From a virus (taxonomy: Duplodnaviria; Heunggongvirae; Uroviricota; Caudoviricetes): a stretch of 64,000 nt of DNA. Position 1 is the stretch's first letter, and every line of letters begins with the position of its first letter. The position numbers and the translations under genes were made by a program. Of this stretch, positions 8,787 through 49,772 are shown in pieces. The notes beneath the pieces were generated by a model. The model was not told where the DNA came from. It ran no database searches and saw only the letters and a list, made by a program, of their open reading frames with translations. The stretch lies in the IMG/VR virus record IMGVR_UViG_3300045051_000909, positions 1-64,000 of that record. One strand, written 5' to 3'.

Positions 8787-9236
8787 CTACGAGCCCGCGG
8801 CCTCCTTGCGCTTGGCCGCCAGCGCGTTCTTGTTGCTGACGTGCTTCGTCAGCTCCGCGCGCAGCTCCGCCTCGCTCTTCTTGACGATCTCGAGCTCCTT
8901 GATGGCGGTCTCGAGCTTGGCCTTGGTGTCGGCCGCCCCGGTGATCATCTCGTTGTACTTCTCCTGGAGGGAGGTCTTGTCCGTCTGGGCCTGGAGGAGG
9001 GCGTGGCCCACCTGCTCGCGGTCCTGGCGGAGCTTCTCGAGGTCGGCGGTCATCTCGAGGACCTGGTTCTCCAGGCGCAGCTTCGAGTTGGTCACCACCT
9101 TGAGCTCGGCCTCCGTCTCCTTCACCTTCGTGGCGGCGCGCCGCCACAGGTAGGTGAGGGTGCCGGTTTCGGCGGCGACGGCGGCGCCGATGGCGATCTT
9201 GCCCCAGTGCGCTGCGAAGAAAGTTGCGATGCCCAT
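8787..9236 (-). CDS. membrane-anchored coiled-coil protein (149 aa); i-spanin/holin-like architecture
   Basis: N-terminal hydrophobic segment FFAAHWGKIAIGAAVAA followed by long heptad-rich helix; own promoter (GGTATAAGC ~9291) and terminator. Confidence 0.5.
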   Translation of the reverse strand: MGIATFFAAHWGKIAIGAAVAAETGTLTYLWRRAATKVKETEAELKVVTNSKLRLENQVLEMTADLEKLRQDREQVGHALLQAQTDKTSLQEKYNEMITGAADTKAKLETAIKELEIVKKSEAELRAELTKHVSNKNALAAKRKEAAGS

Positions 9237-11687: not shown

Positions 11688-12785
11688 ATGCTCCAGCACC
11701 CCTACCAAGAGGGCCAGGCGGAAGCCCTCGGCGCGTTCGGCGTTGAGAAGACCGCCATCAGTGCTCCCCTGCTGCTAGGACTAGGCGGCCTCGGCGCCGG
11801 CTACGCCATGTCGCAGCCTGGAGAGGAGTCCCAGGGAAGCATCCTGGGCGGCCTCGGGGGGCTCGCAGCAGGCTTTGGGCTCCAAGCCGCAGGGCGTGGC
11901 CTCGGGCGTCTCGGACGCGCTGCTGGTGGCTTAGCGGCGCGCGCAGGACGCGGTGTCATGGGCCTGAATCGCGTGGGTCAGGGCACTGTTGACGCGCTCA
12001 AGAATTACAGCGTCGCAGGTGCCGCCGGTCAGCAGATAGCGGGAGCGTTGCCTGCGGGACAGGCGCCGCGAGCACTACCACCGATGGGCGGGACTACCCG
12101 CGCCCCTGCGTCGATGGGCCCGATTCCACAAGGCCCGTCGTCTCTGCCGCAGCAAGGGCAGCTGCCTCCAGGTCCCGCCGCCCCGCCGATGCTCCCACCA
12201 CCTCGTGGCATGGTCCCGGCGTCCCAGGCGATTATCCCCATGCAGGCAGGTCCTGCGGGCGCGTACGCCATGGCTGCGAAGCGTGCTTCTGAACTCTACG
12301 GCGTAAAGGAGGCTGATTGGCAGTTTGGCGTAAGTCCCAATCAGCTCCCTTTTCGTATCGGCTATTCCGACAAAGCAACGCGTCTAGAAGGCATGCACCG
12401 TTTCGTTTCTCCTGATGTGATCAATCAAGCCTACGAGGGGATCGACCAAGGCCATGATCCGCAGGCGATCTTAGATACCGCGAAGGATACCGGTAGTCTG
12501 TTACATCCCGGTGTCGGTGCGGCACTAGGTGCCTACGGCGTGCACCGGTTCCTTCCATCTGGCGGCCTGCCTGGTATGGCCCTAGGTGCCCTTGCTGGTG
12601 GTGGACTGGGAGCTATTTACAACGCAGCTACAGCAGGTGACCGTATCCGCGACATGAGCGAGGCGCTTCGCGGTATCCAACTCGAGGATCAGAAGCGCGT
12701 ATCGCGCCTATCCGCGATTGGGGGCCAGCCGTCTACAACGGCCAATGAGTCGAACCCACTGCTTGTCTCGCGTGGAGAAGCCTGA
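11688..12785 (+). CDS. Gly/Ala/Pro-rich hypothetical protein (365 aa)
   Basis: ORF with GLGGLG repeats and Pro-rich segment; mirror ORF on minus strand rejected. Confidence 0.5.
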   Translation: MLQHPYQEGQAEALGAFGVEKTAISAPLLLGLGGLGAGYAMSQPGEESQGSILGGLGGLAAGFGLQAAGRGLGRLGRAAGGLAARAGRGVMGLNRVGQGTVDALKNYSVAGAAGQQIAGALPAGQAPRALPPMGGTTRAPASMGPIPQGPSSLPQQGQLPPGPAAPPMLPPPRGMVPASQAIIPMQAGPAGAYAMAAKRASELYGVKEADWQFGVSPNQLPFRIGYSDKATRLEGMHRFVSPDVINQAYEGIDQGHDPQAILDTAKDTGSLLHPGVGAALGAYGVHRFLPSGGLPGMALGALAGGGLGAIYNAATAGDRIRDMSEALRGIQLEDQKRVSRLSAIGGQPSTTANESNPLLVSRGEA

Positions 12786-13526: not shown

Positions 13527-14561
13527 CTACCGCAGATGCAGCAGCTTGGTTCCGCGAGGCAGCTTGCGGTTGTTCGACGTGCTCTGGACGAAGATGTCGT
13601 AGTTGCCGTGGTTGCCCGGCACCACCGTCACGTCGAGGTCCGGCAGGCCCAGCACCTGGCGCGCCTGCGGCCCGGCGTAGACCTTCTGGGTCGCCTTGTC
13701 GACGATGGCGATGGCCTTGTGGAACTGCACCTTCTCCTTCTTCATGAGCTGGTAGTACGCGCTGCCCGGGTGGTAGAACCCGATCTTGTTCTCGACGAAC
13801 GGCTGGATCGCCGTCTCGCTGGGCACCGTCCAGATCGTGGCCCGGTCGGTCAGGTCATGGAGCTGCTTGTTCAGCGTCGAGGTCTTCACCTGGGCCATGT
13901 TGGGCGCGAAGAAGCCCCGGGTCGCGCTTTGCCCGAAGGCGCGGCTGGTGTAGTAGGCGCTGATACCGCTCGAGATGGCCTCGCCCATCACCTCCGCGCC
14001 CTGCGACGTGGCCTCCCACACCTGGATGTTGTCGATGGGGATGTCGAAGTTCTTGTGCAGCTGGCGGCGATTGTCATCGCTGGGAACGAGGAAGACCAGC
14101 GTCCAGCGGTCGGTCTTCTGCACCCGGGCGGTGAGCTTGGCGAGCGTCTTGGCGTTGAGCGTACGCGACTGATTCTCCTCCCCGTCGGTGATGACGAAGA
14201 GCAGGAACGACGTGTTCTTCTCGTCGGCATCGTCGAACTTCTCGAGCTCGGTGATGGCGATGCCCGTGGCGTCGAGGAGCGCCGTCCCGCCCGCCGGCTG
14301 GATGCTCAGGTCGGTCTCGTTGACGCGCTCCACGTCGCGCCGGAGGAATTCGATGTCGACCTGGTCATCGAACTTGATGTACGACACGGTCGTCTTCTGG
14401 CCGGTCTCCTTCGCGGTCTTCTTGAGCGTGCGCAGGTTCGAGCGCAGCGCCTGGGTTGCCGGCGTCTTCACCGACTGCATTGACCCACTGCGGTCGACGA
14501 CGAACATGACGTGGTTGGTCAGCGCCTTCTGGGAAACAGCCGTCTTCTTCTTGGTTGCCAT
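13527..14561 (-). CDS. von Willebrand factor A (vWA) domain protein
   Basis: VVDRSGSM (MIDAS DxSxS) ... ITDGEEN motifs; the + strand mirror ORF 13536..14483 is a GC shadow. Confidence 0.8.
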   Translation of the reverse strand: MATKKKTAVSQKALTNHVMFVVDRSGSMQSVKTPATQALRSNLRTLKKTAKETGQKTTVSYIKFDDQVDIEFLRRDVERVNETDLSIQPAGGTALLDATGIAITELEKFDDADEKNTSFLLFVITDGEENQSRTLNAKTLAKLTARVQKTDRWTLVFLVPSDDNRRQLHKNFDIPIDNIQVWEATSQGAEVMGEAISSGISAYYTSRAFGQSATRGFFAPNMAQVKTSTLNKQLHDLTDRATIWTVPSETAIQPFVENKIGFYHPGSAYYQLMKKEKVQFHKAIAIVDKATQKVYAGPQARQVLGLPDLDVTVVPGNHGNYDIFVQSTSNNRKLPRGTKLLHLR

Positions 14562-43888: not shown

Positions 43889-44128
43889 ATGAAGACCCGT
43901 CGCGGCTACACCCTTGTCGAGGTCCTGATTCTCGTCGCCATCGTGGGGATCCTCTCCACCATTGCCCTGGCCAGCTACCAGCAATACCACCTGCGAAAGA
44001 ACTGCCGGCGCGGGCGCTACGAGTTCACCGGGGCGACGGTGTGCTCGAGCTCCAGCCCCTCCGGCCATTACTGCGAACGCTACGAACCCGAGAAGCGATT
44101 CATCTGTGACCAACCCAACGAAGAGTAA
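43889..44128 (+). CDS. type IV pilin-like (prepilin N-terminal motif) small protein
   Basis: MKTRRG|YTLVEVLILVAIVGILSTIALASY = class III signal peptide with G-1 and E+5. Confidence 0.55.
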   Translation: MKTRRGYTLVEVLILVAIVGILSTIALASYQQYHLRKNCRRGRYEFTGATVCSSSSPSGHYCERYEPEKRFICDQPNEE

Positions 44129-47645: not shown

Positions 47646-47761
47646 TCGAAGCGCTAGAGAGTTTCATAGGAGCTGTGTTGGGCTTGGTTGCAACGGCCGT
47701 TGCCGTTGCGGGCGTCCTTTATTTATTGGGCGTCCTTCAGTGAACAGGGAAACATCAAAAC

Positions 47762-49216
47762 ATGAGCGACCAGATTCTTCGCAATGCGCTGGATGAGGCC
47801 AAAGAGACCATCCGCGAGCAAGACGAGATGCTGCGCCAGTTGACCGCGCCCCCGTATCTGCGGGGCGTCGTCATCCGCCCACCGAAGCCGAACGACAAGC
47901 AGCTCTGCCTCATCTCCCAGGACGGAAAGCTCCTCGAGCTCGTCGCCCCCGCCAACGTGCAACTCCGCGCAGGTATGCAGCTGCGGCTGAACGCCCAGAC
48001 GATGGGGATTGTCGAGGTACTCAAGGAAGCGTCTCTCGGAGAGATCGGCTCCGTACTGCGCACGATGCCCGCGACGAATCAGTGTGAGGTCGAAGTCCAG
48101 GGGACAACGCGCGTGGTGTCGGTCGGTCTCGACAAAGCACCTGTCCGCGGCGACCGCGTGGTCGTCGACGAGACCTGCTCCGTGATCACCCAGAACCTGG
48201 GGAAGGAACAGGAGGCGTTCGCCTTCACTGGCGAGACCAGCGTGTCCTGGGAGGACATCGGTGGCCTGCGCGATGCCAAGGAGCAGATGATCGAAGCCAT
48301 CGAGCTCCCGCACAAGCATCCCGACCTCTACAAGAAGTACGGGAAGAAGCCCATCAAGGGCGTGCTGCTCTACGGTCCTCCGGGCTGCGGCAAGACGATG
48401 CTCGCCAAGGCCACGGCCACGGCGCTGTCCAAGGTCCACGGTCAGAAGACCTCCACGGGGTTCATCTACGTCAAGGGCCCCGAGATCCTCAGCAAGTTCG
48501 TGGGAACCAGCGAGGCGACGATTCGGGGGCTCTTCGAGCGCGCCCGCGAGCACAAGAAGAAGCACGGCTACCCCGCTGTGCTGTTCGTCGACGAAGCCGA
48601 CGCCATCCTGTCTCGTCGCGGTACGGGCATCAGCTCCGACATCGAAAAGACCATCGTCCCGATGTTCCTCGCCGAGATGGACGGCATGGACGACAGCGGG
48701 GCCGTCGTTCTGCTGGCAACGAACCGCCCAGACGTCCTGGACCCCGCAGTGGTCCGCGACGGACGCGTCGACCGCAAGGTTCGGGTGACCCGGCCCGAGG
48801 TCGACGGCGCCGCCGAGATCTTCAGCCTGAACCTGAAGGGGAAGCCCCTCATCGATCACACGCCCAAGGAGTACGCGCGCTTCTGCGCCGGCGAGCTGTA
48901 CGCCGACAAGCACGAGCTCTACGAAATCAATCTGCGCTCGGGAAACACGCTCAAGGTCAAGCTGTCCCACCTGGTCAACGGCGCGATGATCGCCGGCGTG
49001 GTCGACCAGGCCACCACCCTCGCAATGCGGCGGGACATCGCCCACAGCGGCAAGGGAAAGTGTGGGCTGACCAAGGAAGACGCCACGGAGGCCATCGCCT
49101 CTCTGCTCAAGCAGAATCGCGACCTCGACCACACCGACGAGTTGCAGGAGTTCACGCACGACTTCCGCAAGGACGTCGTGGGCGTCAACAAGATCCGGCA
49201 CGCGGCCACCGCGTAG
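47762..49216 (+). CDS. ARC/Mpa/PAN-like proteasomal-type AAA+ ATPase (coiled coil + OB + classic AAA)
   Basis: DIGGL...ELP..HP.LY..YG..P.KGVLLYGPPGCGKTMLAKA (near-identical to Mpa/ARC Walker A region), Walker B LFVDEAD, SRH ATNRPDVLDPAVVRDGRVDR; N-terminal heptad helix and OB-like segment. Confidence 0.8.
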   Translation: MSDQILRNALDEAKETIREQDEMLRQLTAPPYLRGVVIRPPKPNDKQLCLISQDGKLLELVAPANVQLRAGMQLRLNAQTMGIVEVLKEASLGEIGSVLRTMPATNQCEVEVQGTTRVVSVGLDKAPVRGDRVVVDETCSVITQNLGKEQEAFAFTGETSVSWEDIGGLRDAKEQMIEAIELPHKHPDLYKKYGKKPIKGVLLYGPPGCGKTMLAKATATALSKVHGQKTSTGFIYVKGPEILSKFVGTSEATIRGLFERAREHKKKHGYPAVLFVDEADAILSRRGTGISSDIEKTIVPMFLAEMDGMDDSGAVVLLATNRPDVLDPAVVRDGRVDRKVRVTRPEVDGAAEIFSLNLKGKPLIDHTPKEYARFCAGELYADKHELYEINLRSGNTLKVKLSHLVNGAMIAGVVDQATTLAMRRDIAHSGKGKCGLTKEDATEAIASLLKQNRDLDHTDELQEFTHDFRKDVVGVNKIRHAATA

Positions 49217-49231
49217 CCAGAGGAGCTACAC

Positions 49232-49432
49232 ATGTGGGAGCAGACCAAGAAGAGCAAGAAGAAGCCGACCGGCGGCAAGGGCGGCAAGACGGAGTTCGAA
49301 GACATCAGCGCGAAGATCCCCGACGCCAAGAGCGCCCTCGAGAAGTTGGAGGCCGCTGAGCGCGAGGCCAACCGGCTGAACCGCCAGAAGCAGAAGAAAG
49401 AAGAGGAGTCCAGTGGCTGCACCTGCTGGTGA
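49232..49432 (+). CDS. small disordered Lys-rich + helical protein (66 aa) downstream of AAA ATPase
   Basis: KKSKKKPTGGKGGK then EKLEAAEREANRL helix. Confidence 0.45.
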   Translation: MWEQTKKSKKKPTGGKGGKTEFEDISAKIPDAKSALEKLEAAEREANRLNRQKQKKEEESSGCTCW

Positions 49433-49772
49433 CATCCTCACGGTCATGGCGCTGTCGCTAGCAGTAGCGGCAGCTGCTATGACGCTCACCAAGGCGAAGG
49501 TGTTCTCCTGGCTGCGCGAGGCTGTGAGCTCGCGCAGTCAGTTCTTCGGTGAGCTGTTCAGTTGCCCGTACTGCATGAGCCACTGGCTCGCGTTCATCGG
49601 AGTATTGGTTTTCCGGCCGGCGCTGGCTATTTGCCCGGTCCCCTACCTGGGCCCGGTCGCCGAAGTGGCCCTGTCCACGTTCGTCGTAGTAGCGCTCAAC
49701 GCACCCATCGCCCGTTTGATTTTCTCAGCGTACGCCGCTATGGGAGCTCTTGCTGAAGAAGAGGAGGAGTAG
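49413..49772 (+). CDS. membrane protein with CPYC motif (DUF1360-like)
   Basis: three hydrophobic helices, CPYCMSHW. Confidence 0.5.
   Translation: MAAPAGDILTVMALSLAVAAAAMTLTKAKVFSWLREAVSSRSQFFGELFSCPYCMSHWLAFIGVLVFRPALAICPVPYLGPVAEVALSTFVVVALNAPIARLIFSAYAAMGALAEEEEE

Follow-up and report, generated by a model that had tools for sequence, protein, structure and literature searches.

A tail-less Mpa/ARC-type AAA+ ATPase encoded with a Pup-shaped small protein and a DUF1360-type membrane protein in phages and Patescibacteria

The locus described here raises the question of what a phage does with an AAA+ ATPase built like the proteasomal unfoldases Mpa and ARC, and with which partners such an ATPase acts. 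It lies in a stretch of 64,000 nucleotides (positions 1 to 64,000 of the IMG/VR virus record IMGVR_UViG_3300045051_000909, Caudoviricetes), termed the window, and consists of three consecutive plus-strand genes encoding the 484-amino acid ATPase, a 66-amino acid protein ending in a C-x-C motif and a 119-amino acid DUF1360-type membrane protein. A preliminary description made from the DNA letters had named the ATPase a proteasomal unfoldase of the ARC/Mpa type, embedded in a paralog array and followed by a Pup-sized disordered protein. The comparisons presented below point most likely to an Mpa-type unfoldase whose link to the proteasome has given way to a link, by a Pup-shaped, cysteine-ended adaptor, to a membrane partner. 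The ATPase family itself is well known. The three-gene unit is apparently undescribed, and no description of it was found in a literature search on DUF1360, phage proteasome-associated ATPases, Mpa/Pup in Patescibacteria, UBact, Pup-like proteins of phages and AAA+ unfoldases of phages, with subscription literature lying outside the search.

Results

Homology of the ATPase to Mpa/ARC

The Mpa/ARC model TIGR03689 matches residues 5-464 of the ATPase over positions 19-494 of its 512 (338.9 bits, E = 5e-101) and is the top NCBIfam model by about 135 bits, with the CDC48, PAN and FtsH models following at 206, 204 and 165 bits. A sequence search of the PDB aligns Mpa in one stretch covering residues 51-462 (217 bits); VAT and p97 rank first in that search because two AAA domains are summed (149 and 169 bits for VAT), and per domain the best match is Mpa. 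A structural model predicted with AlphaFold2 (AF2) on the basis of 77 homologues (pLDDT 92.1, pTM 0.80) was compared with the PDB using Foldseek, where the top 30 matches are all Mycobacterium tuberculosis Mpa chains aligned over 476-508 columns (E = 1e-37 to 1e-31) and the next tier is formed by 26S Rpt subunits (E = 1e-24). Profile alignment with hhalign of 23 phage-type sequences against 14 canonical Mpa sequences gives a probability of 100% (E = 3.4e-95) over 477 columns spanning query residues 2-483, and it runs through the LTAPP junction between the coil and the OB (oligonucleotide/oligosaccharide-binding) segment that is common to both groups. The homology of the domains flanking the AAA core is visible solely by profiles and structure; phmmer searches with the N-terminal 160 or the C-terminal 139 amino acids alone did not find Mpa. 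The profiles and the predicted fold show a full-length and, as judged from its motifs, catalytically intact Mpa/ARC homologue composed of a coiled coil, a double OB segment, an AAA core and a C-terminal domain. The best homologues are not FtsH or Cdc48, and the ARC/Mpa assignment of the preliminary description therefore stands. The features of the gene are as follows.

47762..49216, plus strand: Mpa/ARC-like AAA+ ATPase of 484 amino acids, ATG start, candidate phyla radiation (CPR)/phage subfamily, without docking tail (TIGR03689, hhalign, Foldseek, AF2)
47768..47845, plus strand: N-terminal coiled-coil helix, residues 3-28, with the conserved LTAPP junction at its end (AF2 helix, hhalign)
47855..48232, plus strand: two tandem OB-like β-barrels, residues 32-87 and 94-157 (DSSP strands of the AF2 model, hhalign, Foldseek)
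48239..48796, plus strand: AAA core (Pfam PF00004, E = 1.6e-34; motif positions)
48374-48397, plus strand: Walker A, GPPGCGKT, residues 205-212
48494-48505, plus strand: pore loop-1, KFVG, residues 245-248
48587-48601, plus strand: Walker B, VDEAD, residues 276-280
48716-48778, plus strand: second region of homology (SRH) with arginine fingers, ATNRPDVLDPAVVRDGRVDRK, residues 319-339
48800..49192, plus strand: C-terminal helical lid with a β-insert (AF2 helical region 347-471, strands 385-400 and 472-477), homologue of the Mpa C-terminal domain

The predicted helix at residues 3-28 and the two β-blocks, with five to six strands each, agree with the N-terminal coiled coil and OB-like segment of the preliminary description, the coil being shorter than that of Mpa. 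Pfam matches the AAA domain alone, and its OB model gave no match. In the coil and at its junction with the first barrel L10, A13, Q20 and P31 are conserved in at least 90% of the 77 homologues, and P31 is invariant in the 23-sequence alignment. The AAA core with an SRH of the classical clade is likewise as first described, with the Walker A and B motifs, the pore loop and the arginine fingers all located, and K211, D277, E278, N321, R322, R335 and R338 are invariant among the 77 homologues.

The window ATPase shares with Mpa/ARC (TIGR03689; PDB codes 5KWA, 5KZF, 7PX9, and 7LJF) the full-length domain order, the LTAPP junction and the K-[FY]-V-G pore loop. It differs in its low identity (28-37%), in its TIGR03689 score (339 compared with 504.75 bits) and in its N terminus, which in the hhalign alignment is ~80 residues shorter than that of canonical Mpa with its longer coil; the window coil aligns with the C-terminal half of the canonical one. 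PAN and the Rpt subunits, the second tier of matches, have the same plan of coiled coil, OB and AAA and the conserved proline between coil and OB, but they contain a single OB domain, carry a hydrophobic-tyrosine-X (HbYX) tail and score lower (about 203 bits, and the Foldseek values given above). Among the relatives of the window protein, long CPR-type homologues of 550-780 amino acids (for example L088 8001-9734, P0028, and P0058) have an extra domain (~60-100 residues) inserted after the coiled coil and ahead of the first OB barrel, which the window protein does not have.

Loss of the docking tail and placement of the subfamily

The ATPase terminates in ...KIRHAATA, with no G-Q-Y-L sequence and no penultimate aromatic residue, confirming the missing docking tail that had been noticed at the outset. 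In the hhalign alignment query residue 483 pairs with template position 584 of 601, leaving the window ATPase ~17 residues short of the G-x-Y-L tail (G-Q/H-Y-L in Mpa/ARC). None of the 31 ATPases from loci with the DUF1360 motif described below has a penultimate aromatic residue, and the ending G-[HA]-Y-[LFV] is present in 13/13 canonical proteins with an intact tail and in 0 CPR or phage proteins. The score of 338.9 bits does not reach the TIGR03689 equivalog cut-off of 504.75; two further members of the subfamily score 319 and 332 bits, compared with 734.4 bits and an alignment to model position 511 for a canonical Nitrospirales Mpa (locus L131). That locus also served as a positive control for gene context, its Mpa gene being directly followed by a gene of the Pup-ligase family (E = 6e-166) and a proteasome subunit (E = 2e-35). 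Among the 119 open reading frames (ORFs) of the window, which represents 64 kb of a 194-kb contig, no match was found to Proteasome (PF00227), Pup_ligase (PF03136) or Pup (PF05639), and none is a ClpP, HslV, Lon or other compartmental peptidase. The search for 20S subunits that the preliminary description had proposed thus found none in the window. Compared with Mpa/ARC loci, the window ATPase has no adjoining dop/pafA, pup or prcAB, its partners being the C-x-C protein and the membrane protein.

Cellular relatives were sought by scanning one genome per species. The nearest, at 42-55% identity, are from Patescibacteria/CPR (Saccharibacteria, Kerfeldbacteria, Taylorbacteria, Peribacteria, and Sungbacteria), and canonical Mpa proteins follow at 33-37% identity in Nitrospirota, Poribacteria, Gemmatimonadota, Methylomirabilota, Nitrospinota, and Actinomycetota. 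No proteasome genes were called in the flanks of the CPR chromosomal relatives. By these sequence measures the window ATPase is not an Mpa equivalog and belongs to a sister subfamily with members in CPR/Patescibacteria and many phage contigs, and the alignments show this subfamily to have lost the C-terminal docking tail. The word "proteasomal" in the preliminary description is therefore not retained in view of the score, the tail, the gene content of the window and the CPR relatives. Database labels on members of the subfamily read "proteasome-associated ATPase" or "AAA family ATPase".

Two observations concern the ends and the naming of these proteins. Within the family of 77, the C-terminal residue is alanine in 36 and the last two residues are small (-AA, -TA, -VA) in 42; ends such as KVRLAA, RQVAA and HAATA (window 49199-49213) resemble the C-terminal degrons of the ssrA type and could direct the ATPase to host ClpXP for turnover. 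The "proteasome-associated ATPase" of the Brevundimonas phages Polewnik and Strzyga (ON529863.1 9811-11232; L171 2707-4128) was considered as a relative and set aside as a different protein with no C-x-C or DUF1360 partner. It has the AAA core and C-terminal domain in common with the window ATPase, and its N terminus is disordered and Cys-containing, without coiled coil and OB; its annotation is probably over-specific.

Conservation of the three-gene order in phages and CPR bacteria

The order ATPase, 60-72-amino acid protein, DUF1360-type membrane protein is found in 5 independent phage-like contigs whose ATPases are 49-53% identical, and the same trio occurs in 3 chromosomal loci, including a Kerfeldbacteria metagenome-assembled genome, with the two small genes uncalled in one of them. 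The GC content of the phage-like contigs with the module ranges from 26% to 62%. A scan of IMG/VR with the single ATPase sequence found nothing, and a scan with an alignment as the query retrieved 537 viral relatives, 80 of which were kept for the context counts together with the earlier loci. The complete trio is present in 24/84 loci under a strict filter, and a DUF1360-type gene lies downstream in 30/83 loci after removal of duplicates, mostly those with full-length ATPase matches. The sequence C-x-x-C-x-[SGT]-[HFY]-[WYF], characteristic of the third gene, is present in 30 of 575 same-strand ORFs within 2.5 kb downstream of the ATPase and in 0 of the 4,719 remaining ORFs of these loci (Fisher P = 6e-30). 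Comparison by blastp leaves the ATPase and the DUF1360 gene alone as common to the window and all 24 module loci, and both partners accompany the ATPase in 11/18 CPR-type genomic loci compared with 0/13 canonical loci. The gene neighbourhoods show that in phages and CPR bacteria the subfamily adjoins genes for the C-x-C protein and for the DUF1360-type protein, and not 20S, Pup-ligase or Pup genes.

Further genes recur near the cassette in some of these loci. A gene for ~98-108 amino acids lies directly upstream of the ATPase in 6 CPR-type loci (L088 7708-8004, L089 7642-7968, L094, L096, L097, and L104) and in 0 phage loci, and several phage contigs have a second, unrelated AAA gene of one of two families within a few kb (L001 12328-13896, L052, L035, L065, L030, L029, L004 8190-9962, and L005 8203-9969); the window has one AAA gene. 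Both were rejected as core members, as the former is restricted to some CPR loci and the latter to some phages. In the cellular genome of L090 (11068-16603) a stretch ~1.2 kb downstream of the cassette contains a second, different AAA gene of 558 amino acids, two unknown genes, an 86-amino acid protein of ubiquitin-like appearance ending ...EGG-IQTS, a Prok-JAB peptidase and a ThiF/E1-like enzyme, and may be a ubiquitin-like conjugation set beside the ARC-like cassette.

The small C-x-C protein

The protein encoded directly downstream of the ATPase comprises the following features.

49232..49432, plus strand: 66-amino acid Pup-shaped partner, ATG start, conserved after the ATPase gene in loci of phages and CPR bacteria
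49232-49324, plus strand: basic, Gly-rich disordered N terminus (AF2 coil, residues 1-31)
49325-49411, plus strand: acidic amphipathic helix (AF2 helix, residues 32-60)
49418-49426, plus strand: terminal C-x-C, Cys-63/Cys-65 (family conservation)

The ORF and its layout of a Lys-rich disordered segment followed by a helix correspond to the preliminary description. In the AF2 prediction residues 1-31 are devoid of secondary structure (pLDDT 55-60) and residues 32-60 form a helix (~80 over residues 31-50). The protein ends SSGCTCW and not in GGQ or GGE, as had also been noted. The layout is common to a family of at least 22 members of 60-100 amino acids, each with a basic N terminus (M-[FW]-[ED]-x-K-K-K), in many cases with a Gly run after it, then an acidic stretch, a single acidic helix with the pattern P-[DE]-V-[DE]-x-x-L-x-x-[LI]-D-x-A-[LI], a charged spacer that varies in length, and C-x-C at or near the C terminus, with Cys-63 invariant and Cys-65 at least 90% conserved. 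A profile search of 1.84 billion representative proteins found 22 members, all 22 of which carry the C-terminal C-x-C and none GGQ/GGE. The profile retrieved C-x-C members only, in sets of 5.8 billion and 1.84 billion proteins, with no bridge to Pup, and precomputed Pfam domains are absent from the database matches. The family is unannotated everywhere.

The likeness to Pup (PF05639) extends over the length of 60-100 amino acids, the disordered N terminus with a basic stretch and then a Gly run, a helix with D-x-L-x-x-(I/L)-D-x-x-L at the same relative position, and the encoding together with an Mpa-type ATPase. The differences lie in the lack of GGQ/GGE and of the F-V-R-x-Y-x-Q-K sequence that binds PafA/Dop, in the C-x-C end and in the lack of a ligase gene. 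Searching 177,635 PDB sequences with the family profile gave 9 matches at E ≤ 10, 3 of them Pup chains aligned co-linearly from the N terminus through the Mpa-binding helix. Alignment to a Pup alignment with hhalign scores 24.4 over 43 co-linear columns (P = 1.1e-4), compared with 7.7 ± 1.5 and a maximum of 13.9 in a column-shuffle control (n = 200). When 9,348 six-frame ORFs were ranked with a Pup HMM (hidden Markov model), the top 16 included 7 of the 24 small proteins, where 0.04 would be expected by chance. On its sequence features and predicted structure the small protein is Pup-like in architecture, and its helix is very plausibly Pup-like in its mode of binding; by the same features it is not Pup, and homology to Pup is unproven.

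In locus L005, which also has a full 64-amino acid small protein after the ATPase, a 35-amino acid mini-ORF (11921-12028; MTLDEIEALLAEK...RCGCFGDGT) composed of the helix and a CGC tail lies directly ahead of the DUF1360 gene. It has the look of a partial duplication in which helix and tail stay as one unit beside the membrane protein.

The DUF1360-type membrane protein

The third gene, which the preliminary description did not mention, and its conserved motif are located as follows.

49413..49772, plus strand: 119-amino acid DUF1360-type membrane protein (Pfam PF07098, phrog_781)
49563-49586, plus strand: conserved CPYCMSHW, residues 51-58, at the predicted cytoplasmic start of the second transmembrane helix

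The match to PF07098 has 24.3 bits with a gathering cut-off of 21 (E = 3.2e-5), phrog_781 is matched as well, and the homologues in other loci are weak PF07098 matches. Hydropathy indicates a first transmembrane helix at ~residues 8-24, a basic loop with 4-8 Lys/Arg, the CPYCMSHW sequence at the start of hydrophobic segment 2, and a third hydrophobic segment. Under the positive-inside rule the basic loop preceding CPYCMSHW places the Cys/His motif on the cytoplasmic side at the membrane surface, where it could meet the C-x-C tail of the small protein. CPYC is a glutaredoxin-type dithiol motif, so redox or acyl chemistry is as possible at this position as a shared metal site. To our knowledge no function is known for the DUF1360 family, and the searchable literature holds two passing mentions of it alone, none tied to an ARC-like ATPase.

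Coding evidence and genomic setting

The sense frame of the ATPase gene has GC contents of 0.65/0.40/0.88 at codon positions 1/2/3, which identifies it as the coding frame; an antisense ORF of 492 amino acids (47723..49201) overlying the gene was judged a high-GC shadow. The identical ATPase (P0001) is also present on a metagenomic contig of 194,266 bp, and on this source contig the small ORF, which has a third-position GC (GC3) of 0.91, was called as a gene by the Joint Genome Institute (P0242). Two ribosome-binding sites were read from the sequence.

49220..49225, plus strand: Shine-Dalgarno sequence GAGGAG of the small ORF, 6 nucleotides ahead of the ATG at 49232
49403..49408, plus strand: Shine-Dalgarno sequence GAGGAG of the DUF1360 gene, inside the end of the small ORF and 4 nucleotides ahead of the GTG at 49413

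The DUF1360 gene, from its GTG start, shares 20 nucleotides with the end of the small ORF, and this overlap and the Shine-Dalgarno sites indicate co-translation or translational coupling. A fusion of the ATPase and the small ORF by programmed stop-codon readthrough, the two being in the same frame in the window, was considered and rejected because the frame relation varies among loci. The GC3 values of the ATPase (0.88) and the small ORF are well above those of most neighbours (0.6-0.8) and of the DUF1360 gene (0.72), and equally high values are found in scattered other genes of the window, for example 8787-9236 (0.97) and 13527-14561 (0.94); this subset could reflect expression-linked codon bias or mosaic acquisition.

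The position of the ATPase within a paralog array, as first described, is substantiated by at least 18 ORFs of ~80-170 amino acids (window 39591-63063, plus strand; strict regular expression) that flank it on both sides and share the C-terminal motif C-x-x-C...H...C-[LIVMF]-[FWY]-x-P-[TS]-x-[WFY], which looks like a zinc-knuckle-type element following a small β-rich N-terminal domain. The suggestion that the ATPase acts on these proteins receives no comparative support. No ORF in 17 other module-bearing loci has the motif, and the embedding in the array is thus specific to this phage.

The phage character of the window is apparent from genes for a tail sheath, a collagen-like tail fibre, a gp5 C-terminal domain and a GH108 endolysin. 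A megablast comparison of 20 kb of the window with deposited phages gave zero matches, and no tRNA genes were found within the window. Further Pfam matches in the window are to R2K ATP-grasp, RyR, cREC_REC, DUF3846, Band_7, VWA and an AAA_33/KTI12-type kinase; the last three of these also have homologues in the related contig L001, at other positions. A pilin-like ORF with an N-terminal methylation motif (MKTRRGYTLVEVLILVAIV...) is located at 43889-44128. With the PADLOC defence models the AAA core matches IetA and TRIP13 only, and neither the small protein nor the DUF1360 protein has a match.

Discussion

The three genes are tentatively read as one functional cassette, a proteasome-independent, membrane-linked AAA+ unfoldase with a Pup-like adaptor, and a probability of roughly 0.45 is given to this reading. 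The ATPase would form a hexamer in which paired N-terminal helices make coiled coils above the OB ring as in Mpa. The small protein would act as a non-ligated counterpart of Pup, its acidic helix docking on a coiled coil and its disordered, basic, Gly-rich N terminus pointing into the pore. On the cytoplasmic face of the membrane its C-terminal C-x-C would engage the DUF1360 protein at CPYC...H. Candidates for the chemistry at the cysteines are acyl transfer, a mixed disulfide or a metal site shared by the two proteins. The outcome would be either an unfoldase stationed at the membrane or a handle by which the membrane protein and its bound partners are pulled, and for the phage this may serve the remodelling of membrane proteins, the timing of a membrane event or the removal of host membrane proteins. 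FtsH and Msp1/ATAD1 offer a functional analogy, as classical-clade AAA+ rings that act on membrane proteins at the cytoplasmic face; these enzymes carry their own transmembrane helix, and FtsH its own protease, whereas the link proposed here would be indirect through two small proteins, and FtsH is the weaker sequence match to the window ATPase (about 164 bits).

Several observations weigh against this reading. The coil of the window ATPase has only ~26 residues, about half the length of that in Mpa. About two-thirds of the viral ATPase relatives, mostly more distant or differently built, have no DUF1360 gene within 2.5 kb. Among the 22 small proteins 0 match the Pfam Pup family PF05639 at E ≤ 1, where the sole matches are to chance coiled-coil families, and the three Pup chains found in the PDB search are not individually significant (E = 0.56-1.2). 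Reversed-sequence controls in hhalign score 20-21 on the helix alone, close to the forward 24.4, and most of the Pup signal is thus that of a generic acidic amphipathic helix. The coupling between the two cysteine motifs is derived purely from co-occurrence and topology, and a peptidase partner could lie in the remainder of the 194-kb contig.

The main rival, in itself rather unlikely, takes as the substrate the DUF1360 protein, or a client that it binds, and treats the small protein as a detachable Pup-like tag for extraction or degradation. The ATPase would thread this tag from its N terminus to extract or unfold the membrane protein; such a step could, for example, time or switch a membrane event during infection. 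The disordered N terminus of Pup enters the pore in the Mpa-Pup system, and a disordered, basic, Gly-rich N terminus is what the small protein conserves; the mini-copy of helix and CGC tail in L005 suggests in addition a unit tied to the membrane protein. The window ORFs include no peptidase for disposal of the product, however, and Gly-rich tracts often weaken the grip of AAA+ motors, which would suit a stable tether better than processive threading, and the data do not separate a handle from an anchor. A related and unlikely proposal makes Pup and the small C-x-C proteins true relatives, the latter having either survived as a non-ligated form or branched off in parallel. The cassette would then be a "proto-pupylation" system in which a Pup-like tag attached by cysteine chemistry at the membrane would be read by a proteasome-free Mpa-type unfoldase.

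It is improbable that the ATPase is coupled to a host 20S proteasome or another peptidase and feeds it host or phage proteins such as those of the array. The full-length Mpa homology would fit such a role, as would some neighbours in related contigs (Ku, DUF6197, and an Rv2743c-like gene), which are typical of actinobacteriophages, whose hosts have proteasomes, and the window is 64 kb of a contig of 194 kb; against it stand the absence of an HbYX-type tail in all 31 ATPases of the DUF1360-motif loci and a score below the equivalog cut-off, the window without a 20S, ClpP, HslV or Lon gene, the closest relatives being CPR chromosomal genes with no proteasome genes called in their flanks, and the absence of the paralog motif from 17 other module loci. 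A similarly low probability attaches to a free-standing chaperone or disaggregase with the two downstream genes as mere operon neighbours. Many viral relatives were retrieved without the partners, but the order and strand of the trio are kept across phages and CPR chromosomes while all other neighbours differ, the DUF1360 motif is absent from all 4,719 ORFs elsewhere, and the genes are translationally coupled. Least of all is to be expected from a decoy, in which look-alikes of Mpa without the tail and of Pup without the capacity for ligation would jam the Pup-proteasome system of the host by sequestering pupylated proteins or occupying the coiled coils of host Mpa. A Pup-like layout without the ligation end beside an Mpa-like ATPase without the docking end is what such a decoy would look like; the module is, however, chromosomal in CPR bacteria, and the phage contigs that carry it range from 26% to 62% GC, which makes an encounter with a Pup system unlikely for most carriers, and the invariant C-x-C and the membrane partner would be left unexplained.

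On the membrane-linked reading, the significance of the locus is that Mpa/ARC, studied as the gateway to the bacterial proteasome, would have a widespread sister clade that keeps the unfoldase and swaps the proteasome for a connection to the membrane. The Pup field would gain a candidate non-ligated counterpart of Pup, through which the origin of Pup recognition by coiled coils becomes approachable by experiment, and the DUF1360 membrane proteins would gain a first functional context; their small size makes all three proteins of the cassette amenable to direct reconstitution. Were the proto-pupylation proposal true, the cassette would stand as an intermediate step in the evolution of Pup tagging and as a machine of a new kind for membrane-protein extraction, borne by CPR bacteria and spread by phages. 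Retention of so compact a cassette by many phages, very large ones included, and by genome-reduced CPR bacteria implies a useful and probably general role in membrane-proximal protein remodelling.

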